Source: a virus
Taxonomy: Duplodnaviria > Caudoviricetes
DNA: 54,837 nucleotides
Strand: one strand, 5' to 3'
IMG/VR virus record: IMGVR_UViG_3300021560_000021
Coordinates: 1 to 54,837 of that record
In this document: piece after piece, positions 17,032 through 36,359 of the stretch
How positions within the stretch are numbered: position 1 is the stretch's first letter
Layout of the letters: the number at the start of each line of letters is the position of its first letter
The notes under the pieces: model-generated
Told to the model about the DNA's origin: nothing
The model's database searches: none
Seen by the model: only the letters and a program-made list of their open reading frames with translations
Position numbers and translations under genes: made by a program

Positions 17032-17403
17032 TCAGCCTTTCAGACTGTCGGGCACCTTCCCGCCGTTTTCTTCGAGCTTCTGCATGAGTGCCTTGTACAG
17101 AGCTTCGTTGCGTTCCGCTGATCCATCTGTACCAGCGGTGACGTTAAGTTCCTGCGCCAGCGTATGACGCGCTGCCGCACTGGAATCGAGGCCGAGCACG
17201 TGCAACAGATCAACGATGGATGTACGCCAGTTACCACCGCCGCCCTTCTGCGTTGCGAGGTTCTGCACGATCGCTTCCACGTCGATCACGGGCTTCGGTG
17301 CGGAAGGATCAGCCGGTGTGGCTGCCTGACCAGCAACCGCGGTACCTTCGGCGCTTTCCGTTGTACCGGTCAGCTTGTGCCAGATATCCGTCAACATGCT
17401 CAT
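17032..17403 (-). CDS. DUF3597-like protein, in frame with and nested in the 3' end of the GT9 ORF
   Basis: NWRTSIVDLLHVLGLDSSAAAR..LAQEL...KLEENGGKVP; own RBS AAGGAG 7 nt before ATG 17403. Confidence 0.75.
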   Translation of the reverse strand: MSMLTDIWHKLTGTTESAEGTAVAGQAATPADPSAPKPVIDVEAIVQNLATQKGGGGNWRTSIVDLLHVLGLDSSAAARHTLAQELNVTAGTDGSAERNEALYKALMQKLEENGGKVPDSLKG

Positions 17404-18522
17404 AGGCTCGCTCCTTGCTTGTACTGGTTGGCCTGTAAGCGCAGCCTGTGCGCACCGGACGATATGCTCGATCGGAATCGAGGAAATGCAGGCTGCGGCG
17501 TTCTTTTCCTTGTTCGGTGTGCAATAGGTAAAATCGCTGTGCAGCCGATGGCATGGATAGCAAGGCACCGTCGTTGTGTGCAGTGCGATGACGCGATGCC
17601 AGTACTTGACGATGTTCTCGGGCGATGCATGTGACAGGAGTACAACCTTGGGGATGTCCTCCATGGCAACGGCCCACATTGATCCGGTATCCGGCCCGAT
17701 CACCATGTCGCATTGCTGCAATAGCGCGAGCGAACGTCTGATCGGCCAAGACTTCACGTCGGCGTCGTCAACCGCAATGCTGCCGTCGTCCTTCACCGTC
17801 CACTTCGGCAAGGCGAATTGCAGACCAGTGGTTGATCCGTTGACGTGCTCCACGTGCTTGCGGATTTCTTCCGCCATGGACATTTCGCGCGTACTGGTCG
17901 GCGAGCCAAACAGCACAACCGGAATGCCAAGCTCGCGGATCAAATGAGCGATCGCCGCTGCGGAGTACGGATAGATTTTGTCGATGCGACTACCGGACAG
18001 GCACCAGCCGATCATGCGGTCGCCGATGATCGACTTGGTTTGCACCGCCTTGGCGCGTTCATCATTGGTCGGATAGAAGCGCGGATCAAACTCGTACGGC
18101 ACACCGCAGATATCGTGCAGGTACTCAAGGTAGTTTACGCCGCAATGTGCACGTCGCCATTCCGCCGGCCAGTAGAATTTCGTCTGACCGGGAAACAGCG
18201 CCAACTCGGTTTCGATCGAATGCGATAGATGGCGAAAGTAGGCGTACTCTGCACCACGCTTTTCAAACCAGCCCTGCCATTCTTCGGCCGAGGTAAATGG
18301 AATATCGCCTTGCTTCTTGATCGTCAGTTTGTCGATGTACGGATTGTTTTCAAACACGCATCCCTGCGGGTCCTGCGCAATGACTTCAACATGGTAGTCC
18401 TTGTGCAGATGCGGCAGGACGGACGATACGATGATGTTGTCGCCGATACCGCCCAAGCGTGCGATGCATGCCCACGGCTTCACAGTCGCAGCCATTCGAT
18501 CAATTCGGCGCCCGGCTGACAC
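17032..18522 (-). CDS. Glycosyltransferase family 9 (heptosyltransferase-like) protein
   Basis: RLGGIGDNI, VFENNPYID, IGPDTGSMWAV and PCYPCH motifs. Confidence 0.85.
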   Translation of the reverse strand: MSAGRRIDRMAATVKPWACIARLGGIGDNIIVSSVLPHLHKDYHVEVIAQDPQGCVFENNPYIDKLTIKKQGDIPFTSAEEWQGWFEKRGAEYAYFRHLSHSIETELALFPGQTKFYWPAEWRRAHCGVNYLEYLHDICGVPYEFDPRFYPTNDERAKAVQTKSIIGDRMIGWCLSGSRIDKIYPYSAAAIAHLIRELGIPVVLFGSPTSTREMSMAEEIRKHVEHVNGSTTGLQFALPKWTVKDDGSIAVDDADVKSWPIRRSLALLQQCDMVIGPDTGSMWAVAMEDIPKVVLLSHASPENIVKYWHRVIALHTTTVPCYPCHRLHSDFTYCTPNKEKNAAACISSIPIEHIVRCAQAALTGQPVQARSEPMSMLTDIWHKLTGTTESAEGTAVAGQAATPADPSAPKPVIDVEAIVQNLATQKGGGGNWRTSIVDLLHVLGLDSSAAARHTLAQELNVTAGTDGSAERNEALYKALMQKLEENGGKVPDSLKG

Positions 18523-24254: not shown

Positions 24255-27200
24255 TTATGCGAGCGCGCCAGTCAGCAAAACGATCTGCTCGGACGGCAGC
24301 GCAATGGAGGACATGGATGCTTGTGTGCCGATCAACGGTGTGGTCGGATTGGCCTTGCCGATCTCCCACCGTGCAACCGTACCGCTAATCGCACCGCCAA
24401 GTACCGACAGGTTCAACGTCTTAGCCGCAGCCACGTCATAGTTGACGATCTGTGCAGCGAATGCCTTGGCATTGACGGTGAACAGGATATCCACGCTGGT
24501 CAGGCTGGTACTGGCCGACACCTGATTGCCAGACATGACCTGTCCGGCCTTGCCGAGATAATAGCCGGCCGGATCAATCTTGGTCGGATCGCTGGCAAGC
24601 TGCTTGTTGCCAACCGCGCCGTAATAGTCATCGTACAGCGCATCCCACATGGCGGCGCCAGTGAAATTGAAATCGCTCTTATGCGCCGCACTCAACAGCA
24701 ACGCATTGTACACCGCGCCGACATAGGTGCCCTGCCACGGCAGACCGAATGCACCGCTGTTCTGTGCAGCGTTGCCGTTGTACTCGGTCATCATGATCGG
24801 AATGTCGGCCGCCGCCGTATTGACCAGCTTGGCGCGTACCGATGCCACGTCGGTAAAGCCTATCGCCTTGGCGTAAATCTGCGCATTGGTATCGGCCGGA
24901 GCGACCGGGTACGAATGGAAGCAAAAGAAATCCACCTTGCCCGCACTATCGACAAGGAAAGCCGCGATATCCGGCGCATTCCACGATAAGCCTTCGGTGG
25001 CGCCCACCTTATACGCCGCGTTGATCCCGTGCAGCGTATCAGCAATCGCGTTGAAGTATGCGCTGTACGTGTCCACGTCAGACGGCCACTCATTGCCAAC
25101 CGACCAATAAATGATCTCGTGGCCAGCCGTCTTTTCCGCCTGCGCAAATGTACCGACCAGTGATGCCCACTGTGACGGTGATAACACTTCCTGTCCGGTC
25201 AGCGGCCCCACGCCCATGATCAAACGATAGGACGGGTCCATGAAGGACGTGGCATTTGCCCACCACGCATTCATCACCGTGTTGTCTGTACCGAAGTTGC
25301 GCGCGATGTACTGGTCAGCGTTGATACGCAACAGTGTTGGCCTGATCTGCGCCAACGACGAAACCACGCTAGAATTGGCCAGCGCGGCAAACTTGTTGTC
25401 GGCCAGCGCACCAGTTGACAGACCGAAGTTGTACCGCGAGAAGCCTTTGATCACCGAGGTAAGTGCAACGCTTCCGGTCGCAGTTGCCGGTGCGATCTGG
25501 ATGGTGAAGCTCTTGGTAACCGTGGAGCCGTTGGTCAGTTGCGCGGTGATCGAAACCGAGTTTGTACCGGCCGTCAGCGCACCAGCGGTTTGCAGTTGCG
25601 AGTTTACGATCTTGAAGTTGGCGGCATTGCTACCGCCTAGCGCACCGAAAGTACCGGTGAACTGCCCGCTTGACGTGACTACCACGATATTGCCGACCAC
25701 GGTTGAAGCCGGCGAGCCTGCGGTGACCGTCTGATTGTCAAGCAGGATATCGGTTACCGTCTGGCTTGCCAAGCGCGGATCGCCCGCTTCGCCAACCCAA
25801 TGATAGGTGCCGGTGCCGGCCCCGGCCGGACGCGCCGCATAGGCTCGGATGTAGTCGATATGCGCACCGGAGCCGTTGCCGCCGGCCACCGACTGCGCAC
25901 CGTCAAAGGTGATGTTGCTAGCCGTCGCCGCCGTCGGATCAGACCCTTGAGTCCAGATGTTCGGCTCAGTCCAATAGTACCAATTGCCGGCCGCGTTGGT
26001 TTGCCAGATCACATTGTTGACGTAAACGATCCGCGTGACGTTGCTGCTAAAGCCGGCATTGGCGCCGTTCTTCTGCACCACACCGGCCGAAGTGACCGTC
26101 CACACCGCACCGTTGATATCGGTGATCGAGCCGATACCCGGCGTTGCACTCGGGATCGTCGTACCGGCAAAGTCGTCAAGGAATTGCGCAGCCGACTTGT
26201 TGAGTGTACCACCGGTACCGGAGTAGGCCGCCGCGCGCGAGGCCCACACACCGATGTAGTCAACCTGCATGACGTTGGTTGTCGTCGGCGTGGTGACTGC
26301 CGGTGCACCAGACCAGCTAGTTGGACCACCGATCGCCAGCACGCAATTGATGTACCAAAGGTTGGCCGCGATATCGGACGGCATCGCCTGTTGATACGTT
26401 TGTACGTTATCAAACCAGAAGGTGATGGTTGATCCGGTAAGCTCTACGCCATAGGTGTGGAACGCCAGCGAGACATCGGCAACACCTGTGTAGTCATTTT
26501 CATGGCTGGCGCCGGCAACGCCTGAATGAATGGACTGACGTACAACACCCGGCGAGCCACCGAGCAGTTCAACAACGTCAAGCTCACCGGGCGGATACGT
26601 AACAGTGCCGCCAGTGTGTACAGACAGCGGATAGAGCACCAACGCACCCCACGTACCCGGACCACCATTGGCCGGGCCGCCTTTCGGCATTTGAATCCGG
26701 CCTTCGCAATAGCCGTGGTTGAACGCATAGAGGCCGGGTTCCGGGCCGCCATTGATCTCGCGACAGGACGTGATGCAGCCGGAATTCCACGGCTGGCCTG
26801 CGGGATTGATCACACTGACTGGTGCGCCCGAACCCTCAAATGCGCCGATGTCATAAGCAGTACCTTGCGGACGACCTAGACCGGTCGCATCGGTCGTCAC
26901 TACTGGAATCGTCAGCCCATGATTGAGCGCAGCCGAGCCGGCGCCAAGTGCGTAGTTATTGGCTGGGTACGAGGATGCGTTGATGAAATTCGGATTACCG
27001 CTCTGCCCGTTGGGGTTCCATCCGGTCGTGGCGCCGCTTGAGAACGCAGCACCATTCGTCAGGTACACATCGTTATAGTCGATCTGTCCAACCGCAGTCG
27101 GTGTCCAACCATTTGTCACGAAGGCAAACGACGATGCACCGGAGCAAGCGATGATGTTATTCTTGAACTCGCTCGCTGCGTTTGGCGATCCCATAGAGAA

Positions 27201-30200
27201 CGCCCAGCCACTCACATCCAGCGTGTTGTTGTAAAAATGGAAGATGCCGTTGGTTGATGTAGTGGTATTCGTGGTGTTCTGACAGATCACAGCAACCGGT
27301 CCAGCACCGCCCTTTATGCGTATCGTATTGTTGTACGCGGTGAGAATCTTGCCGTTGACCGGATCGGACAGCATCATACCATGCAGGTTCGTGCCGTCGT
27401 AAATCTGTTCGATGTAGTTGTTGCGGATCGTCAGGTTGCCGTTGTTGACCGTCTGGATACCGTCATTATGCCCGTTGGAATTGGAATTCCGCATAATGAT
27501 CGTGTTGCCATCAACCAAGATGGCATCGTCAACCGTATTGCCTTGGATGTATATGCCATCCGTCTGATCGGTGAAGCTGGCGCCGTTCGCGCCACCGCTA
27601 TCTGCCGTGTCAACGTAATTGCTCGAGATCAGGATGCCGGAGCTTCCCGCTCCGGTAATGTTACGAATGTCAAAGGCGCACGAATGTCCGTTGTTGTTCG
27701 TACCGCCAACGTGGACCTTGCAACCTTGTACAACAACGCCGTTCATCACGCCGGAGTTGCCGTTGATCCACACGCAGTCAAAACCAGAACCGGGATTTTG
27801 CAGCGTGAGATTGTATACACCGATGTAACTGCGGCTGATTATATCGAGGCAATCCCGGCCCGCAGACTGACCGTCGATTATGACGGTTCCATTGTGCCCG
27901 GCATCGGTGCCGGCGGTAATTATGATCGAATTTCCCGATGTACCGCTTTTGCCGATGGTCAGCGTCTCATTGTACGTCTGCGAAGCTGCGCCGCCAGAGA
28001 TATAAATCGTATCACCGGCCGCAACGCTGGCCCAAACGATGTTTGACAGGTTTTTCCACGCACCGGCCCACGACGTTCCGGCGCCGCTGGTAGCAACCGA
28101 ATTGTCAACGTACCACTTCGCGCCTGCCCCAATTGGTACACTAGGCGCCGTCCTTGCTATGATCGACAGGACGCTATTCGAGATGGCAAACGCGTTATAG
28201 CCATAGCTTGACACATGGCCGGAGCCATTGTCGGCATAGTACTGCTGTTCGTTGACCCACGGCAGATAAAACTCGTTGCCACCAAATGCCAGATGGTTCA
28301 TCCATCCGCCCGGTGAGCCGGTACCACCACCAGAGGTCAACTGCGCGGGATTTGGCGTGACATCGGCGCCGTAATTCGTCGCCGTCAGGATGTACATGTA
28401 CTGCGGCGTGGACGTGTAGTCGGCCGGATCAGGCAGCGACGAAAGCTGCACCGTCCACTTCAACACGCCATCGAGGTAGAAATTGATCAGCGTGTTGGTC
28501 CACTCGATTGCATACTCGTGCTGGCCGGACGCATCAAATGGAATGGAGGACCACAACTCGCCGCCTGTACTCTGCGCAACGCCGAAGTTGACCACCTGTC
28601 CGTTGGAGTTGGAGTCAACGCGAATGTCGATCTCCGGCGGCCAGTGATAAATCTCCCATGCTTCAAGGCACCACTGGAAACTGATCCCCGGCGTGGTATC
28701 GACCGCCGCACTGACCGCCCAGTACCCGTACTGCTGCGTAAACGAGTTGACGGTATGCAACAGCGTACCGACAAACGGCAGGTTGGTACCGGCCTGTAGG
28801 TTGATGTAGTTCTGATAGGCCGCAGGCGTCGGCAACACGCCAAGATGCATCTGCCCGCCTGAAATGGAATACAGCCCGGCGATCGGCGTGGATGGGTTAT
28901 TCGGATTGGTCCACCACTGCGAACCGCTTTCATTGTTGTTTGGGCCGCCGCGTCCATCCGGCGTAGCTGGCGTACAAAAGCCGAAGTTATCACCAGCCGT
29001 CCAAGCACGATGCGTCAACCATGGTTCGGTTGCAGTGAAGTCATCGTTGAACGTCGTCGGCACTGATGTACCGGTCGCCCATACCCACCAGCCGCCCGAT
29101 GTGTTGCGCTGATGGATTTGATTATTGTACCACAACAGCAGGTTGACATTCTGCGTCGAAGTATCGGTTGTACCGCCGTGTTGTATCTGATTGCCCTGCG
29201 TCGCCGACGCCACCAGAGTCCACGGCGTGACATTCTGATCATACAGCACGTCACCCGGCCCGGTGATCGACGCACCGTTGGCCGACGTGGTGATGCGCGG
29301 ATCACTTGCCGGTACAACCGCCGTGCCGTTCCACACATTCCAGCCCGAAGCGGTCTGCTGATAGACCGTGTGGTTGTGGTAGTACAACTCCAACGTCGTG
29401 GTCGCGGAGCCTTGCACTGTACCGTTGTAAATGATGTTGCCGTTGGCGCCGGTCAGCGACCATGTATCAAAAGGACCGGACGATGCAGTGCCCGGCGTAC
29501 GCGAGGCGAGTATGATGCCACCGGCATCCACCAGCGTTGTACCTTCCGGCGACTCGCTCTGCGCGGGGATCGGCGATCCCACGCTGCCATTCCATGCGTT
29601 GTTCTGCCATGCCCACCAGCCGGGGTTATTGCCAAGGCTATCGGTGCTGTTGGCCTGCTGGTACACCGTGTGGTTGTGATAGTACAACTGCACAATGTTG
29701 CGCGTTGACATATCAACTGTGCCGTTGACGGCAATGCGAAATCCGTTGCCGTCATTCAAATTGACCAGCGTCCACGCGTTAAGCTGTGCATCGTAAATGA
29801 CTGTGGCACCAGTGGTCACGGCGGTAATCAATTGATCAGGCGGCTGCGACGGCGCACCGGTACCGCCACCGCCACCCGGCGACGGTGTGCTCATGGTCGC
29901 GCCCGTGAATGCCGCGCACTGATTGCCGTACGGAGTCTTCGTGTTGCCGTTGGTATTGACCAGGGTATCAGCGTCGGTATTGCCACCAGCACCGGCCGGC
30001 GGCACATAGCCGTACCAACTCCAAAGCCACGGGAACGCCCCGCAGAAATTGCTCGGCTGATTCGTCGTCAGATCAATGAAGGCTTGTACGCATGCATACT
30101 TGCCGTTGATGATCTTGTCATCCGATGGGACGCTGGCACCCGACGTAGAGTTGCCGCCTTCGCCCATGAGCACCGGCATGACGCCATCGGCCGAATGCGC

Positions 30201-32294
30201 GTAGTTCTGCCACTGGTTGATCCAGCTATGGATGTTGTTATAGTAATCCTGCATCGTCGCGGCGCTGCCGAACGCCCACGGGTACATGTGGATGTTCCAG
30301 CCGACATTCGTCCATGTCGAATAGATGGCGGCGTTGATCGAATTGAAGCCGTTGTAGTTGCCGTTCTCCGACTCAAAGAAGATCAGGCTGTTGTTGCCGG
30401 CACCACGAATGGCATTGTAGATCGCCTGATGGCAGTTGCCCGAGTTGTACACCTCGTTTTCAGTGGTCCAAATGACCATCGGCTGCTGCGCATAGTGCGT
30501 CGCCATGCGCGTGTACCAAGCGCAGGAATTGGTCAGATCAGTACCCGAGCGGACCTGCGGCTGCCCGGGTACATAGTCGGACAGCATGACGACGAAGCCT
30601 TTGGCAATGGCATCATCGACCCATGCGAAGATCGCTGCGTCCGGTTGCGCGCTCGCGTAGCCGTTGCCGTCCGCGCCGACCGCAAGGTTGATCGCATTGC
30701 AGTTCGGAAATAGCTGCTTGACCAGCGACGCCGGCACCGAGGACATCATGCCGTCAAGCACCGCCACGCCGTAAATGGTGAACGGCTGACCACCGCGCAG
30801 CACCCGCCCGCCGCTGACCGACCATGCACCAGTTGGCGCGGTCGTGACCGACGCCGTGCCGGTTTTGATCTGTGTGCCGTACGCAGTCAGCGCGCCGTTG
30901 CTCTGCTGCGTCAGCATGTTGCCCATATGCGCGGCGGCCTGATTGCCGGGGATGTAATAGATGTACGCAGCATAGCCGTTGAAGTGCGTCGGCGCGTAAT
31001 CCAGTACAACCTGTACCGCCTGTGTGCCGCCGGCATCGGCATTGACGGTTGCAGTTGAATTGCCAAACTCGCCAACGATCACCGGAAGCGCGGTGAAGGC
31101 GAGTATGCTGGCGATGTCAGAGACAAGCTGATTGAGGTTGGTTGTGTAATCCGTGCTGTACGACGTGCGGCCGTTGTAATAGTGCATATTCCAAAAGACG
31201 TTGGTCCACGACTTGTACCGACCATCGTTGATCAGACCGGTCGGCGAGTAGCCGCCGATCGGGTCCAATCCGATCGGCGCGGCGTTGCCGGCACCGCGGA
31301 TTGCGTTGTACACCGCCTGATGTTCATCGGACACTTGGCCTGTGCCGTTCTGCGGCGCAGACATCGTGTTGAACCAAACCAGCGGATTAGACTTCCACTT
31401 GGTCGCAAGCTGGGTAAACCAACTGATCATCGTCGGGTCATTGGCGCCCAACGAATTCGTGGCGTTGTAATTGCACAGCACAACGACGATGCCGAGTGCG
31501 GTCAGCCAGTTGATTGCGTTGATGATCGTCGTGTCGTTGATCGTCGCGGTGTAGCCGCTCTTGCATATGATGCGCACAAAGTTGCAGCCGGGGAAGTTGG
31601 CCAGCAACGGCGTGCAGTTGGAGTTGGCAACCACGGTGCCGACCGTGGTATCAAGTACGCAGATACCATTGGCGACGAATTTGATCCCGGCATTGTCAAC
31701 GACGAAGCCATTTGACATGCGGAAGGGTGGCACATAGACATAAGCACTGGACGACGGTGCGGTTGCCGGCGCCTGTGGCGTCACTGTACCGACCGGCATG
31801 GTTGTCGGCACGCCAGGATCAGGCTGATTCCACGTGACGACGGTGGTGCCGTTCCACTGATACCAACGAAAGCCTTTGGCCATCTGCGCCCATAATTGGC
31901 CGTTGACCACACGGATGGAATCAACGAAATCGCCATTGACCGACGTGGAGATTTTGATCTGCTGGCCGTTGCGCGTGAGCGCACCCGCCGGCCATGCTAT
32001 GCCATAGTACGTGTTGGCCGGCGTCATCATCGGCAACGTCCACACGTCGCCATTGGCATCGGTGACCGAGCTTGGTCCGCCGGCCTGCGCGCTGACCGGA
32101 GTTATGTCGTTGGCATTGAGTACGGTCAGGTAGCCTTGGTATTCCTCATTGCTCAAATTCGTCCAGTTCATCGCGCACTCGACTTGGTTGACATCGAGTG
32201 TCACGGGCAACGGAATAGTCGCGCCAGTGCCCGGCTGCAACGGCGGCAGGTTGTAAATGTTGCACTTGGCAGGAAGGGTCGTCGTACCGGACAT
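24255..32294 (-). CDS. Giant multi-domain glycoside hydrolase (2x GH5-like, 2x GH16-like, right-handed beta-helix, cadherin-like, C-terminal clan GH-A domain)
   Basis: 2679 aa; ENEV/GEGG, GEFG, WPPEIDI, GELDVVE, HNDGIQ beta-helix, GNEW/TEYN motifs. Confidence 0.85.
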   Translation of the reverse strand: MSGTTTLPAKCNIYNLPPLQPGTGATIPLPVTLDVNQVECAMNWTNLSNEEYQGYLTVLNANDITPVSAQAGGPSSVTDANGDVWTLPMMTPANTYYGIAWPAGALTRNGQQIKISTSVNGDFVDSIRVVNGQLWAQMAKGFRWYQWNGTTVVTWNQPDPGVPTTMPVGTVTPQAPATAPSSSAYVYVPPFRMSNGFVVDNAGIKFVANGICVLDTTVGTVVANSNCTPLLANFPGCNFVRIICKSGYTATINDTTIINAINWLTALGIVVVLCNYNATNSLGANDPTMISWFTQLATKWKSNPLVWFNTMSAPQNGTGQVSDEHQAVYNAIRGAGNAAPIGLDPIGGYSPTGLINDGRYKSWTNVFWNMHYYNGRTSYSTDYTTNLNQLVSDIASILAFTALPVIVGEFGNSTATVNADAGGTQAVQVVLDYAPTHFNGYAAYIYYIPGNQAAAHMGNMLTQQSNGALTAYGTQIKTGTASVTTAPTGAWSVSGGRVLRGGQPFTIYGVAVLDGMMSSVPASLVKQLFPNCNAINLAVGADGNGYASAQPDAAIFAWVDDAIAKGFVVMLSDYVPGQPQVRSGTDLTNSCAWYTRMATHYAQQPMVIWTTENEVYNSGNCHQAIYNAIRGAGNNSLIFFESENGNYNGFNSINAAIYSTWTNVGWNIHMYPWAFGSAATMQDYYNNIHSWINQWQNYAHSADGVMPVLMGEGGNSTSGASVPSDDKIINGKYACVQAFIDLTTNQPSNFCGAFPWLWSWYGYVPPAGAGGNTDADTLVNTNGNTKTPYGNQCAAFTGATMSTPSPGGGGGTGAPSQPPDQLITAVTTGATVIYDAQLNAWTLVNLNDGNGFRIAVNGTVDMSTRNIVQLYYHNHTVYQQANSTDSLGNNPGWWAWQNNAWNGSVGSPIPAQSESPEGTTLVDAGGIILASRTPGTASSGPFDTWSLTGANGNIIYNGTVQGSATTTLELYYHNHTVYQQTASGWNVWNGTAVVPASDPRITTSANGASITGPGDVLYDQNVTPWTLVASATQGNQIQHGGTTDTSTQNVNLLLWYNNQIHQRNTSGGWWVWATGTSVPTTFNDDFTATEPWLTHRAWTAGDNFGFCTPATPDGRGGPNNNESGSQWWTNPNNPSTPIAGLYSISGGQMHLGVLPTPAAYQNYINLQAGTNLPFVGTLLHTVNSFTQQYGYWAVSAAVDTTPGISFQWCLEAWEIYHWPPEIDIRVDSNSNGQVVNFGVAQSTGGELWSSIPFDASGQHEYAIEWTNTLINFYLDGVLKWTVQLSSLPDPADYTSTPQYMYILTATNYGADVTPNPAQLTSGGGTGSPGGWMNHLAFGGNEFYLPWVNEQQYYADNGSGHVSSYGYNAFAISNSVLSIIARTAPSVPIGAGAKWYVDNSVATSGAGTSWAGAWKNLSNIVWASVAAGDTIYISGGAASQTYNETLTIGKSGTSGNSIIITAGTDAGHNGTVIIDGQSAGRDCLDIISRSYIGVYNLTLQNPGSGFDCVWINGNSGVMNGVVVQGCKVHVGGTNNNGHSCAFDIRNITGAGSSGILISSNYVDTADSGGANGASFTDQTDGIYIQGNTVDDAILVDGNTIIMRNSNSNGHNDGIQTVNNGNLTIRNNYIEQIYDGTNLHGMMLSDPVNGKILTAYNNTIRIKGGAGPVAVICQNTTNTTTSTNGIFHFYNNTLDVSGWAFSMGSPNAASEFKNNIIACSGASSFAFVTNGWTPTAVGQIDYNDVYLTNGAAFSSGATTGWNPNGQSGNPNFINASSYPANNYALGAGSAALNHGLTIPVVTTDATGLGRPQGTAYDIGAFEGSGAPVSVINPAGQPWNSGCITSCREINGGPEPGLYAFNHGYCEGRIQMPKGGPANGGPGTWGALVLYPLSVHTGGTVTYPPGELDVVELLGGSPGVVRQSIHSGVAGASHENDYTGVADVSLAFHTYGVELTGSTITFWFDNVQTYQQAMPSDIAANLWYINCVLAIGGPTSWSGAPAVTTPTTTNVMQVDYIGVWASRAAAYSGTGGTLNKSAAQFLDDFAGTTIPSATPGIGSITDINGAVWTVTSAGVVQKNGANAGFSSNVTRIVYVNNVIWQTNAAGNWYYWTEPNIWTQGSDPTAATASNITFDGAQSVAGGNGSGAHIDYIRAYAARPAGAGTGTYHWVGEAGDPRLASQTVTDILLDNQTVTAGSPASTVVGNIVVVTSSGQFTGTFGALGGSNAANFKIVNSQLQTAGALTAGTNSVSITAQLTNGSTVTKSFTIQIAPATATGSVALTSVIKGFSRYNFGLSTGALADNKFAALANSSVVSSLAQIRPTLLRINADQYIARNFGTDNTVMNAWWANATSFMDPSYRLIMGVGPLTGQEVLSPSQWASLVGTFAQAEKTAGHEIIYWSVGNEWPSDVDTYSAYFNAIADTLHGINAAYKVGATEGLSWNAPDIAAFLVDSAGKVDFFCFHSYPVAPADTNAQIYAKAIGFTDVASVRAKLVNTAAADIPIMMTEYNGNAAQNSGAFGLPWQGTYVGAVYNALLLSAAHKSDFNFTGAAMWDALYDDYYGAVGNKQLASDPTKIDPAGYYLGKAGQVMSGNQVSASTSLTSVDILFTVNAKAFAAQIVNYDVAAAKTLNLSVLGGAISGTVARWEIGKANPTTPLIGTQASMSSIALPSEQIVLLTGALA

Positions 32295-32300
32295 AAAATC

Positions 32301-32474
32301 TTATTCCTTGGCTGTGTCCGATTGCAAAACCGCCTGTTGTTGCCGCCACGCATCGCCGCGTGCGCCACCGCTGCCATGCGGATCATGTTCGGAATAGTGC
32401 GCATCGTGACAGCCATTATCCGGCGGCGGCAGTGGTTGGATTGGCTTGTTCTGTTGTACAGGTTGATCGGACAT
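32301..32474 (-). CDS. Hypothetical 57-aa protein (MSDQPVQQNKP...)
   Basis: Translated by hand; AAGGA RBS; exactly fills the gap between the two glycanase genes. Confidence 0.55.
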   Translation of the reverse strand: MSDQPVQQNKPIQPLPPPDNGCHDAHYSEHDPHGSGGARGDAWRQQQAVLQSDTAKE

Positions 32475-32486
32475 GGATTTGCTTCC

Positions 32487-35345
32487 TTACTTCATCATCC
32501 CACGGATGACCGTGCCGTAGTCGGTCAGCACCGAGAAATCAAACGGCGCTGCAAGAAGCAGGTCCGCCGTTGACGTATCCCAGTTCGCGTACCAAGCAGC
32601 GAAACCATTCGGCAAGGCGCCAACCTGATTCATCACGTCCATCCAATTGGCGTCACGTGTCGCGCCATCAGTGCTGTCACCGAATTCAAAGCAGAACGGT
32701 GCAATAGCTCCCTGTTGGTTGTTGAAGATCAGAAGTTGGTTGAGCAGCGATTGCAGCGAGATACCGTTGGCCGGCTGCCAGCCGTAATAGTGGTAATCCC
32801 AACCTGCATTCGTCATGGTGGAGAAGTTGCTGGCCGTCATGCCGGGCGGATTGTCGCCCATTGAACATAGCACCGGATTGGTATTGCCAGTGTTGCGCAC
32901 GGCATCGTACATCGCGCGCATCATGTTGGAGATACCCGCCGCGTCACCGTGCGGCTCATTCTGCGTACCGAACCACACGTACGGATTCGACTGGAATGTT
33001 GTCGCCCATTCAGCGAGCCAGTTGCACGCATCAGTCAATGCCTGACCGGTCGCATAATTGCCCGTGTAGTGTACTTCGGCGTACACGATGATCTTGTTGG
33101 AAGTCAGATCGTTGACCCAATTACGCACCGTTGCATCGGTTGCAGGATGCGATGCGTTGGCCAGTGACGTGGCGTACAAGTCGGCGAAGCGTACGAGGTT
33201 GATCAGCGGGAAGGCGCGCTTCAACGCACCAGACGAGAACCGGCCAAGGTCCATTGAACCGCCGCCGCTGCCCCATGGCCGACGATAGATGCAGTTGATA
33301 CCCTGCGCATGAAACACAAGGCCATTTGGATCAGTAACGCGGCCGTTCGCAAGCAGGAAGCGACCCGAAGCCGGCGGCGCTGGTGCCGAGGGATCACCGC
33401 TGATCTGCGTCCACGTGACGACGCCGGGCGAGGTCGTATTGGACATCCACCAGCCGACACCGTTCGGTGCCGAGGCGTAGGGCGCGGACTGCGCAATCTC
33501 GCCGCCAACCTTTTCGATCACCGTGACGTTTTGCGTGCTGGTCTGTACCTGCCACGTTGTTGTACCTGCCGGCAGCCAGTCGATTTGCCCGTTGGCGTCG
33601 ATCCGCCAGCTATCACCGTCATTGTCGATCAACACGGCGCTTGTACCGCCAGCAACCGCAGTCGCTTTGGCGTACTCGGGCGACGGGCCGCCCGGTGTTG
33701 GCGGTGGCGGTACAACGACGCGCGGATCACCGGCAATCAGTACCCAGCCCTTCGTCACCGGATTCCACTGTGCCCACTGTCCGCCGGCCGTCTCGTAATA
33801 GACGATGCCATTGTGCAAAAGCAGAGCTTGCAGGTTGTGCGTATTGGTATCGGGCACACCGTTCTGTGCCGCCTGCATACCATCGGCCGCCTGTACCAAC
33901 GTCCATGTGATGCCTTGCGGATCAACGAAGGACTGCGCAGCACCAGTGACGGTTGTACCTTCCGGCGATTCCTGCTTACCGGCGGCAACCAAGGTCACCG
34001 TGGATAGCTGCGACGGCACACCGGAACTGGCGGCATTGGATGCGACAACCTGTACATCCCACACACTACCCGGCGGACTGAGGCCGGTCACGGTCGCGCT
34101 GTTGGTTTGTACCTGCGCGCCGATGTTTACCCACGCACCACCGGCATGCGGGCGGTACTGTGCCTGATAGAAGATCGGCGCGTCACCGGTCGCCGATAGC
34201 GTCCACGTCAAGGTAAAGCCGGACTGCGTTGTGTTGGTCGGCTGTACATTGGTCGGCGCCGATGGCGGGATCGCTGTACCGGATGCCGTATTCAACTGAT
34301 TGGTCTGCGAGGTTGCCGAGCCGCCGGTATTGCTGGCGACAACCTGTACGATGTACGGCGTTGCCGGTAGCAGCCCGGTCATGTTCAACGTGGTGCCGGT
34401 GATCGGCGCACCATAGTTGGCAAAAGCGTTCGCGCCGGTACGGTACTGCACCTGATAGGTTGGCGTCGGCAGACCGGTGGCCGATGGTGCCCATGTCACG
34501 GTCGCCGATGACGCCGTGATGTTGGTAAACTGCGGCTGCCCCGGTGCGGATGGCGCGGTCGCCGTCTGTGCAAGCTGACGCGTGATGAAGGTCGTGGTCG
34601 TGGTCGTCACGCTGTTGATCGCGTCCACTGTCAAATCGTACGTCTGACCGCCCAACAAATTGACAACGGTGACCGGACCCTGACTGACCGGACTGCCGAA
34701 CGGTGTCCAAGTGGACGCGCCGTTGATCCGGTATTTCGGCTGATAGGTGATCGGCGTTGAGCCGGACGCTGAATTGGTCCAATTGAGGACCAACGTGCTG
34801 ATCTGAATGTTGGTCGCGGTGATGTTGGTCACGGGCGACGGTGGCGTACCAACCGGCAACGTCTGAATGGTCACGCTCGGCGAGTTGGAGTTACCGGCGT
34901 TGTTGGACGCGTTGATGTAGAAATCATAATTTGTGAAGGCGGCCAGACCGGTCACCGTTTCCGACGTGCCGCTCTGCGGTGGTCCGTACGGCACATAGTT
35001 GTTGCCGGAGCCGGACTGACGGTACATCACTTGGTAAAAAATCGAGCCGGAGCCGGATGCGGACGGCGACCAGTTCAGTACAATCGAGCCTGACGTAACC
35101 GTACCCGGTGTCGGATTGCCCGGCGCTGACGGTGCCCGCGTCGCCGTGGTGAAGGTGACGATCTGCGATGTTGTTGCGCCTGATTCGTCAACAGCGAGGA
35201 TATCAAGGTCGTATGTGCGATTGGCCTGCAACCCTGTCAGCACGTCATTCAAATCGGTTGTCGGCTCGCCGAATTCGGTCCATGGCGCATTCTGCGCGGT
35301 CGTGTGCAGCCGATACCGCACTGTGTAGATCGCAGGGGAGGCCAT
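32487..35345 (-). CDS. FN3-repeat protein with C-terminal GH5-like glycoside hydrolase
   Basis: Five FN3 units (first lacks its N-terminal strands); TQNEPHG acid/base; WDYHYY; CFEFGD nucleophile. Confidence 0.85.
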   Translation of the reverse strand: MASPAIYTVRYRLHTTAQNAPWTEFGEPTTDLNDVLTGLQANRTYDLDILAVDESGATTSQIVTFTTATRAPSAPGNPTPGTVTSGSIVLNWSPSASGSGSIFYQVMYRQSGSGNNYVPYGPPQSGTSETVTGLAAFTNYDFYINASNNAGNSNSPSVTIQTLPVGTPPSPVTNITATNIQISTLVLNWTNSASGSTPITYQPKYRINGASTWTPFGSPVSQGPVTVVNLLGGQTYDLTVDAINSVTTTTTTFITRQLAQTATAPSAPGQPQFTNITASSATVTWAPSATGLPTPTYQVQYRTGANAFANYGAPITGTTLNMTGLLPATPYIVQVVASNTGGSATSQTNQLNTASGTAIPPSAPTNVQPTNTTQSGFTLTWTLSATGDAPIFYQAQYRPHAGGAWVNIGAQVQTNSATVTGLSPPGSVWDVQVVASNAASSGVPSQLSTVTLVAAGKQESPEGTTVTGAAQSFVDPQGITWTLVQAADGMQAAQNGVPDTNTHNLQALLLHNGIVYYETAGGQWAQWNPVTKGWVLIAGDPRVVVPPPPTPGGPSPEYAKATAVAGGTSAVLIDNDGDSWRIDANGQIDWLPAGTTTWQVQTSTQNVTVIEKVGGEIAQSAPYASAPNGVGWWMSNTTSPGVVTWTQISGDPSAPAPPASGRFLLANGRVTDPNGLVFHAQGINCIYRRPWGSGGGSMDLGRFSSGALKRAFPLINLVRFADLYATSLANASHPATDATVRNWVNDLTSNKIIVYAEVHYTGNYATGQALTDACNWLAEWATTFQSNPYVWFGTQNEPHGDAAGISNMMRAMYDAVRNTGNTNPVLCSMGDNPPGMTASNFSTMTNAGWDYHYYGWQPANGISLQSLLNQLLIFNNQQGAIAPFCFEFGDSTDGATRDANWMDVMNQVGALPNGFAAWYANWDTSTADLLLAAPFDFSVLTDYGTVIRGMMK

Positions 35346-35349
35346 TTGA

Positions 35350-35823
35350 TCAGCTTCCTACTTGGTACGGCGACCACGATACCGATACTGCGGTGTCGCT
35401 GATTACAGTCACCGCGACGTTGATCGGACGTGGGGGCGGCTGGTCTAATTCGGTTTGTGGCTGTGTGATGTACTTGGTTTGCGCCGGCTTGTACGCGCCG
35501 TACACCGTCATCAGCGTAAAGCTTGCAGTGAATTGCCGTGTATTCTGATTGGCTGTGGACGAGTAGCCTTGCAGTTCAACAACGCCCGGCGTCTGCACCG
35601 CGCGCATCTGAATGGCGATGTCCCGTGTGTTTGCCGTGCCTACACCGAGTACTTCATTCAGCCAATCCATCCCATCGGACGTATCAAGAAACCACTGTCC
35701 GGTCCAAAGCCGCAGACGCGTGGCGACCGCTTGAGCCACCGCTTCCGGTTGATCAATGTAGAAATCATTCTGACCGCGACCGAAGACAAAATCCCCGGTC
35801 GGACTGAGCTTGCGGTACCTCAT
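35350..35823 (-). CDS. Baseplate gp25/gp46-like wedge protein with FN3-like C-terminal tail
   Basis: MRYRKL...GDFVFG...EAVAQAVATRLRLWTGQWFLDT..G. Confidence 0.85.
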   Translation of the reverse strand: MRYRKLSPTGDFVFGRGQNDFYIDQPEAVAQAVATRLRLWTGQWFLDTSDGMDWLNEVLGVGTANTRDIAIQMRAVQTPGVVELQGYSSTANQNTRQFTASFTLMTVYGAYKPAQTKYITQPQTELDQPPPRPINVAVTVISDTAVSVSWSPYQVGS

Positions 35824-36359
35824 GCGACCATTGCCGGCTTCAATACGCCGCCCAGCACTTCGGCGATGGCGCGACAGATCGCAGTGAAGTTTTTGTGGTA
35901 CAGCTCCGCATCGGCGTACGAATCAACGAAGCAAACTTCGATCAGTACTGCCGGCATTTCGGTCATGTTGAGAAAGTACAAATCGTCGCGGAACTTGGAG
36001 CCGCGATTGATGAAGCCACCAGCATCATGCAACGCGGCACAAAACGCATTCGCCAGACCAAGATCAGTCAGGTAGCAGCATTCGGTGCCCATCGGATCGG
36101 GCGTAGTCTGGAATGCGTTGAAGTGTACCGAGACATCCAGACTGCGGTCGTGTGCATTGTGGAAACCGACGATGGTTTCAAGGTTTGTCTGCTGATCAGT
36201 GCTGGTATCGTCGTGGAAGGTCAGCACTTCAACGCCGCTGTGGTTCAGTTCAACCGCCACCTGATCAACCACGTTGCGGGCTTCGTCCACTTCGACAAGG
36301 TAGCCTGACGCACCGGGCACGTGCTTACCGTGCCCGCTGGATATGATCACAGCGACCAT
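35820..36359 (-). CDS. N-acetylmuramoyl-L-alanine amidase (Amidase_3), probable endolysin
   Basis: SSGHG...E, SVHFNA and LIEVCFVDS Zn-binding/catalytic motifs. Confidence 0.92.
   Translation of the reverse strand: MVAVIISSGHGKHVPGASGYLVEVDEARNVVDQVAVELNHSGVEVLTFHDDTSTDQQTNLETIVGFHNAHDRSLDVSVHFNAFQTTPDPMGTECCYLTDLGLANAFCAALHDAGGFINRGSKFRDDLYFLNMTEMPAVLIEVCFVDSYADAELYHKNFTAICRAIAEVLGGVLKPAMVA

Follow-up and report, generated by a model that had tools for sequence, protein, structure and literature searches.

In the soil phage represented by IMG/VR virus record IMGVR_UViG_3300021560_000021, one FN3 domain is divided between two adjacent genes of the contractile-tail module. The first encodes a tail sheath initiator of 157 amino acids (aa) that ends in FN3 strands A and B. 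The second encodes a 952-aa protein that begins at FN3 strand C and continues through a stalk of intact FN3 repeats into a glycoside hydrolase domain of family GH5. We propose that these two separate polypeptides jointly rebuild one FN3 domain and that the rebuilt domain tethers the enzyme arm to the sheath initiator, a reading to which we give a probability of roughly two in three. The window referred to below is the whole stretch of DNA analyzed, 54,837 nucleotides (nt) or 54.8 kilobases, with a CheckV completeness estimate of ~63%; its minus strand carries the contractile-tail module. The features needed for the argument are listed in window coordinates.

35350-35823, minus strand: sheath-initiator open reading frame (ORF), 157 aa
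35497..35823, minus strand: gp25-like globular domain, residues 1-109 of 157 (phrog_120 'baseplate wedge subunit', E-value (E) 7.7e-29)
35443..35496, minus strand: variable linker, residues 110-127 (mean column identity 0.43 over nine homologs)
35353..35442, minus strand: conserved Pro-rich lead-in, then FN3 strands A and B as far as the B-C loop, residues 128-157 (FN3 profile)
35343..35360, minus strand: gene junction, read from the sequence
35358-35360, minus strand: TAG in the frame of the second gene, four codons before its ATG
35354-35359, minus strand: AGGAAG, Shine-Dalgarno (SD)-like, ending 8 nt before the ATG of the second gene
35350-35352, minus strand: TGA stop of the first gene
35346-35349, minus strand: 4-nt spacer tcaa
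35343-35345, minus strand: ATG of the second gene, in the +1 frame relative to the first
32487-35345, minus strand: FN3-GH5 ORF, 952 aa
35142..35345, minus strand: incomplete FN3 domain, strands C to G, residues 1-68 of 952 (own FN3 profile)
33993..35129, minus strand: four intact FN3 repeats, residues 73-165, 169-257, 264-353 and 361-451 (jackhmmer domain table)
32586..33203, minus strand: catalytic domain of the cargo, GH5 (cellulase family), residues 715-920 (Pfam PF00150)

A sheath initiator with a half-domain tail

The 157-aa protein is identified as a tail sheath initiator (gp25/TssE-like) by its sequence homology to structurally defined members. A profile of nine homologs matches, among PDB entries, XM1 gp15 (7kh1, 'tail sheath initiator', E 3.5e-12) and Pam3 gp21 (7yfz, E 1.5e-11), as well as three entries described as 'sheath initiator' (9ndy, 9cuy and 9mjn, E 4e-7 to 2e-6). 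The gene also has the placement of a sheath initiator, with the spike gene ahead of it in the baseplate module and the Baseplate_J wedge gene behind it. A Pfam scan of the protein returned no match, though the protein database lists PF10934 for it.

Beyond the globular domain and the linker the protein closes with DQPPPRPINVAVTVISDTAVSVSWSPYQVGS, the last residues being SVSWSPYQVGS. Over the nine homologs, the folded domain has a column identity of 0.75 and the tail one of 0.71; the linker reaches 0.43, and the residues past the Trp 0.38. The tail thus matches the folded domain in conservation and the linker does not, which shows that the half domain is under constraint. The motif QPPxxPINVxVTxxSDTxVxVxW is kept in P0001-P0009. 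These proteins come from a word-based search with the sheath initiator that returned 196 homologs; among the best 120, eight besides the window's own (P0002-P0009, 51-63% identical) cover 96-99% of the query with the tail present, and their chains end 2-8 residues past the strand-B Trp. Solved FN3 domains also match the nine-homolog profile at positions 121-153, by the first strands of contactin-4, RPTP-F and an FN3con fusion (E 4e-4 to 5e-3).

The complementary half and the FN3 profile

The 952-aa protein starts with MASPAIYTVRYRLHTTAQNAPWTEFGEPTTDLNDVLTGLQANRTYDLDILAV. Pfam fn3 (PF00041) recognizes four stretches of it (E 2e-36), and the four intact repeats match this family over its full length. 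The GH5 assignment comes from a PF00150 match at E 2.2e-12 and 47.5 bits against a gathering cut-off of 23.5; the translation contains the motifs NEP and EFG, which are presumably catalytic. Between the FN3 array and the GH5 domain, at residues ~452-700, lie Trp-rich modules of ~90 residues without a Pfam match. By eye, a similar Trp-rich module opens the N-terminus of a 2679-aa protein encoded further along the module, and these modules may serve in carbohydrate binding or in linking the 952-aa and 2679-aa proteins.

The relation between the two halves was defined with an FN3 profile made from 19 intact FN3 repeats. These were taken from the downstream proteins encoded in the window and in three relatives, always excluding residues 1-72. 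In sheath initiators this profile matches C-terminal tails only, from position 1 to positions 22-27, that is over strands A and B, in all six pairs of proteins available. In the downstream proteins, compared over residues 1-75, its match runs from positions 29-31 to position 90, over strands C to G, again in six of six pairs; the match in L007 stops at position 69 because the contig ends there. For the window itself, sheath-initiator residues 130-156 correspond to profile positions 1-27 and residues 4-67 of the second protein to positions 30-90. The sole part missing across the two halves is the B-C loop. Neither polypeptide gives a whole-domain match of the PF00041 type at the junction; the two chains jointly cover the seven strands. 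Specificity can be judged from the sheath-initiator genes of 164 loci described below, which specify 83 C-terminal tails that are 12 aa or longer: the profile matches nine of these (six distinct sequences) and none of the other 74. By this measure the FN3 resemblance of tail and partner exceeds chance.

These coordinates bear out an earlier note on this DNA, made from the letters and their translations, which had recognized strands A-B at the end of the gp25-like protein and a start at strand C, lacking A-B, in the next gene. The details it gave for the junction, namely the 4-nt gap, the differing frames, the AGGAAG and the TAG four codons upstream, are all found at 35343-35360. Its term gp25-like is correct, and sheath initiator names the first protein more exactly.

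Conservation of the split among relatives

Scans of metagenome and viral contigs yielded 163 related loci, 164 with the window, of which 161 hold a complete sheath-initiator ORF. The viral scan with a single protein contributed just four tail-less loci, and the informative loci came from alignment-based scans. An FN3-type tail occurs at nine of the 164 loci, representing six distinct cases: the window, L006, L007, L008, L086 and L090, with L087, L088 and L089 identical to L008 at the junction. The sheath initiators of the five other distinct split loci are 48-55% identical to that of the window. At all nine tail-bearing loci the directly downstream ORF starts at FN3 profile position 28-30. In contrast, at the 147 remaining loci of the 156 whose sequence runs on for at least 130 nt, the profile matches nothing immediately behind the sheath initiator; at the tail-less loci inspected by eye, the next ORF starts like a wedge (Baseplate_J) gene. 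The six distinct junctions are as follows.

Window: stop TGA, gap 4 nt, frame offset +1
L006: stop TAA, gap 12 nt, frame offset 0
L007: stop TAG, gap 11 nt, frame offset +2
L008: stop TGA, gap -4 nt (ATGA overlap), frame offset +2
L086: stop TAG, gap 1 nt, frame offset +1
L090: stop TGA, gap 1 nt, frame offset +1

Each of the six loci has its own stop and its own ATG at the equivalent position, the ATG falling 4-7 residues before the conserved strand-C Tyr. A stop in the frame of the second gene precedes this ATG by 4-13 codons in five of them and by 63 codons in L007. Neither an X_XXY_YYZ heptamer nor a homopolymer of at least five nucleotides was found within the 80 nt upstream of the stop in any of the six, in a scan confined to such sequence motifs. 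The earlier note had advised looking at reads and homologs for the split, and both agree with it: a second assembly (a Logan contig) of the sole soil run with window DNA is identical over 34600-36100 without any indel, at a depth of 7.9, and the split is kept in six of six distinct tail-bearing loci. No RNA data set was listed among those containing this DNA. Comparison of these loci indicates that the FN3 split is conserved and is neither an assembly error nor a recent fission. A split conserved in this way is almost certainly functional.

Other searches were less productive. A word-based search with residues 1-75 of the second protein retrieved only the window's own protein. A viral scan with an alignment of the N-terminal part found the known loci again and added L171 and L172, which were set aside since their match is to an intact internal FN3 repeat. 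A search for representatives gave 3446 matches at E <=1e-3, of which the best 150 were considered and 14 fetched; among these 14, P0123 and P0125 carry A-B tails according to the profile. P0127 and P0165 look similar by eye, gave no profile match and were not counted.

Variable cargo and a natural fusion

The downstream proteins share the truncated FN3 domain and four or five intact FN3 repeats, after which they diverge.

Window: GH5, 952 aa
L087: GH16, at least 1997 aa
L090: GH16, 1613 aa
L086: 955-aa FN3 protein with no recognized enzyme family; another FN3-esterase gene comes next

Across these sequences the dock stays the same and the cargo changes. The second downstream gene of L086 (9352-12348, plus strand) has an FN3 arrangement of its own. 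Its product matches the profile at residues 474-530 (positions 1-56) and again at residues 838-873 (positions 56-90), so that the two halves stand ~300 residues apart in one chain, with a putative esterase domain (PF00756, just under the cut-off) between them. This would be an FN3 domain interrupted in cis by an inserted domain.

A search for longer, fused sheath initiators gave two matches among 405 candidates, which is weak evidence on how frequent fusions are. One of them, P0121 (664 aa), joins a sheath initiator and its A-B tail to an enzyme-like domain of ~500 aa without a Pfam match; the FN3 profile found no strands C-G in the same chain. The P0121 fusion indicates that cargo on the sheath-initiator C-terminus is tolerated. 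The other, P0122, was rejected as an FN3 fusion, its extension being Pro-rich and containing no FN3 part. A relative of the P0121 enzyme part (44% identical) is found in L165 within a 921-aa protein encoded directly after a spike-like gene, a different context that is uninformative here. Yet another kind of C-terminus is seen in a second clade of sheath initiators (P0011, P0013, P0015, P0021, P0027 and P0041; 171-180 aa), which have a different conserved extension that follows a Pro-rich linker and ends ...DGGRF; many other sheath initiators have assorted Pro-rich extensions. The sheath-initiator C-terminus may be a general attachment point.

Structure predictions

Prediction of the complex, also recommended in the earlier note, was carried out with residues 1-165 of the second protein (5-row alignment) and residues 100-157 of the sheath initiator (9-row alignment). 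The interface score (ipSAE, interaction prediction score from aligned errors) was 0.67 (0.64, 0.68 and 0.67 in individual runs), against a best value of 0.00 in three controls. Among solved complexes 58 of 80 reach the ipSAE mark used, as do 2 of 110 mismatched pairs; this calibration is approximate here given the shallowness of our own alignments. The runs have at least 95% of their contacts in common, with a predicted local distance difference test score (pLDDT) of at least 62 for the partner. In the model, tail residues 128-152 contact partner residues 5-9, 32-42 and 47-70, and residues 144-150 (strand B) lie against residues 32-39 (strand E), as in an intact FN3 domain. The two chains are thus modelled as one FN3 sandwich, which supports the pairing of the halves and does not prove it.

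When the partner is folded alone, its first domain shows strands C, C', F and G and no strand at the place of E (~residues 32-39); this truncated domain has a pLDDT of 79-88, compared with 91-97 for the next FN3 repeat.

Proposed docking and its alternatives

If the halves pair as modelled, the sequence of events may be pictured as follows. The variable linker of ~20 residues would lead outward from the sheath initiator to the A-B hairpin. The first FN3 domain of the partner lacks two of the three strands of its A-B-E sheet, and the hairpin would insert into this open sheet, strand B pairing with strand E and strand A closing the sandwich. In solved myophages six sheath-initiator copies stand atop the wedge ring, in a handshake with the first sheath ring and with a C-terminal arm contacting the wedge, as described for phage phi92 (PMC13450770). 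By analogy, a stalk of four FN3 repeats ending in a glycoside hydrolase, GH5 in the present case, would be tethered to each of six sheath-initiator positions. No stop-start distance among the six loci exceeds 12 nt, which agrees with coupled translation of the two genes and with similar amounts of the halves. The halves would then bind with 1:1 stoichiometry, and the enzyme would presumably degrade a host surface polysaccharide, either exopolysaccharide or capsule. A broader form of this proposal sees a natural two-strand tag and dock for virion assembly: in a clade of soil myophages the FN3 domain would be permanently divided, the cargo genes (GH5, GH16 and others) would be swapped by recombination against an unchanging tag half, and the domain would fold only when its halves meet on the baseplate. 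We favour this extension by a slight degree over its negation.

The docking by beta-strand complementation put forward in the earlier note is well supported, on computational grounds, by the complementary coordinates, the conserved split, the conservation of the tail and the complex model. Several observations nevertheless weigh against it. The favourable complex score may reflect no more than the likeness of the pair to intact FN3 folds that are well known to the predictor, and halves of a familiar fold tend to score well. The sheath initiator folded alone is poorly predicted (mean pLDDT 53, and 37-50 in the tail hairpin), a result that says little and was left unused. A clear SD-like motif stands before the second gene only in the window among the six loci. 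In P0121 an A-B tail occurs with no partner half next to it in cis. Finally, the soil run behind the Logan contig is the probable source sample of the window, and the read support is in consequence not independent.

The serious rival is recoding, in which some ribosomes frameshift or read through the stop of the first gene and produce a covalent fusion of sheath initiator, FN3 and enzyme. The division into two genes would then mislead in part. The earlier note had excluded simple readthrough and had kept a +1 frameshift as an alternative. Its statement that readthrough cannot fuse the genes holds for the window and fails for the clade, where the two genes of L006 are in one frame, separated by TAA and four codons. 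The stop context of L090, CCC TGA, is presumably a +1-prone site, and in P0121 a covalent link is evidently tolerated. The boundary, however, cuts the domain at the B-C loop, so that the unshifted product would carry an orphan and yet conserved half domain. The ATG is conserved in six of six loci, as is a stop of the first gene, and the stop in the frame of the second gene lies 4-13 codons upstream in five of six. No slippery heptamer, homopolymer or shared signal connects the six loci, and three different types of recoding would be needed within one small clade. Frame variety by itself does not exclude recoding and so also counts against two-chain docking, for phage Ig (immunoglobulin)-like C-terminal extensions are, according to a review, made by either +1 or -1 frameshifting with the direction seemingly immaterial (PMC5009743). 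On balance we regard recoding, including the +1 frameshift, as unlikely.

A second rival is that the tail is a vestige. An old fusion would have split and the halves would no longer pair, the tail now having another binding target (the wedge or the first sheath ring, for example) and the truncated first FN3 domain of the partner being tolerated or packing on its own second repeat. Its main support comes from P0121, which keeps A-B without C-G in cis; the contact between the sheath-initiator C-terminal arm of phi92 and the wedge, as described in PMC13450770, also counts in its favour, and AlphaFold still gives the truncated domain a pLDDT of 79-88 when alone. A vestige is nevertheless difficult to reconcile with the adjacency of tail and truncated partner, which holds in 9/9 tail-bearing loci and in 0/147 others. 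The FN3 core positions of the tail, the strand-B Trp included, are conserved, the profile coordinates of the halves are exact complements, and the complex scores 0.67 against 0.00 for the controls. We consider the vestige improbable.

An assembly indel or fresh mutation that broke a single gene in one genome can be dismissed: the window does come from a single metagenome at a depth of 7.9, with a second assembly from the same probable source run, but the same break point recurs in five other distinct loci on other contigs with differing stops, spacings and frames, and eight homologous proteins (51-63% identical) share this end point. What excludes sequencing error and recent fission, the latter another alternative of the earlier note, is the split in the relatives and not the reads.

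Neighbouring genes

The minus-strand order of the module begins with the hub (E217 gp41-like), a Dit-like protein, the plug (Pam3 gp18-like), the spike, Amidase_3 and the 157-aa sheath initiator; it continues with the 952-aa protein, a small ORF, the 2679-aa GH16 protein, Baseplate_J, DUF2612 and the tail fibre. The following genes were noted beside the split pair.

35820-36359, minus strand: N-acetylmuramoyl-L-alanine amidase (Amidase_3, E 6e-23), in the baseplate module between spike and sheath initiator, with a 4-nt overlap between its stop and the start of the latter gene
~32300-32474, minus strand: small ORF of ~57 aa starting MSDQPVQQNK, with GGAAG upstream, within the 192 nt that separate the FN3-GH5 gene from the gene for the 2679-aa protein
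24255-32294, minus strand: 2679-aa protein, between the FN3-GH5 gene and Baseplate_J; Pfam recognizes GH16 only, at residues 1176-1302
17032-18522, minus strand: 496-aa protein with a heptosyltransferase-like region (Glyco_transf_9) and DUF3597, just downstream of the tail-fibre genes

The 2679-aa protein (24255-32294) contains no FN3 domain, no split-domain start and no comparable split.

Significance and comparison with known systems

If the halves pair, phages would possess a new means to hang exchangeable enzymes on a conserved part of the tail, with one fold spread over two gene products. This would explain how large monomeric FN3-enzyme arms, unlike trimeric spikes, are attached to a simple baseplate, and it would make the sheath-initiator C-terminus a site that can serve for attachment. 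It would also provide a natural case in which a stable domain is cut at a loop and the cut has persisted while the surrounding proteins diverged to ~50% identity. The ~25-residue natural tag and its receiver could then be tested for loading cargo on phage tails or tailocins. Gene callers and domain scans recognize neither half as a domain, and such links are therefore currently invisible in annotation. Searches of the open-access PMC and bioRxiv literature brought up no account of an FN3 domain split in nature, of a sheath-initiator domain shared with another virion protein, or of trans domain reconstitution as a viral docking principle.

The closest relatives of the first protein are the sheath initiators of contractile tails (the T4 gp25/TssE class, with XM1, Pam3 and phi92), to which the likeness consists of the homologous residues 1-109. 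The solved XM1 gp15 (117 aa) and Pam3 gp21 (125 aa) end soon after this domain, whereas the window's protein has a 48-residue extension with half an FN3 domain. The window also differs from these solved relatives in having two large enzyme genes between the sheath initiator and the wedge gene.

Ig-like or FN3 domains added to phage virion proteins, in many cases through a programmed frameshift (Fraser et al. 2006, as reviewed in PMC5009743), resemble the present case in that an FN3 domain comes at the C-terminus of a tail gene with a change of frame and that FN3 arrays decorate virion proteins. There the second frame encodes the complete domain, which recoding joins covalently; here the gene boundary falls within the domain, and either half brings a conserved stop or start codon of its own. 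The split FN3 domain does not appear to belong to the programmed-frameshift Ig-like class, as the scan found no conserved recoding signal and the downstream frame has its own ATG.

In chaperone-usher pili, the C-terminal G strand missing from one subunit is supplied by the N-terminal extension of its neighbour, with the help of a periplasmic chaperone and an usher. Such donor-strand complementation creates a very stable non-covalent link that builds a surface appendage. The likeness is that an incomplete Ig-like sandwich is completed by one or more strands of another polypeptide. Here, by difference, the fold is FN3, the missing strands A-B would be supplied by a C-terminal baseplate tail, and the break falls in the B-C loop. 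The present system is not a member of the chaperone-usher donor-strand class, since the strands missing are A-B and not G. No chaperone is evident, no search of the window having been aimed at chaperone or usher genes.

Split inteins, split green fluorescent protein and SpyTag-type tags likewise comprise separately encoded fragments that reform one fold, or a short tag that recruits cargo. The split FN3 domain is no member of this group either, and differs from it in being natural, in its FN3 fold and in its context of virion assembly, and neither splicing nor a covalent bond is expected. Adaptor docking of tailspikes and depolymerases, as with T4 gp10-like anchors, is similar in its likely purpose of placing exchangeable polysaccharide-degrading modules on a conserved baseplate protein. 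Those adaptors use whole folded domains on trimeric spikes, whereas the arm described here would be a monomer-type FN3 stalk held by a two-chain domain, and its anchor would be the sheath initiator and not the wedge periphery.

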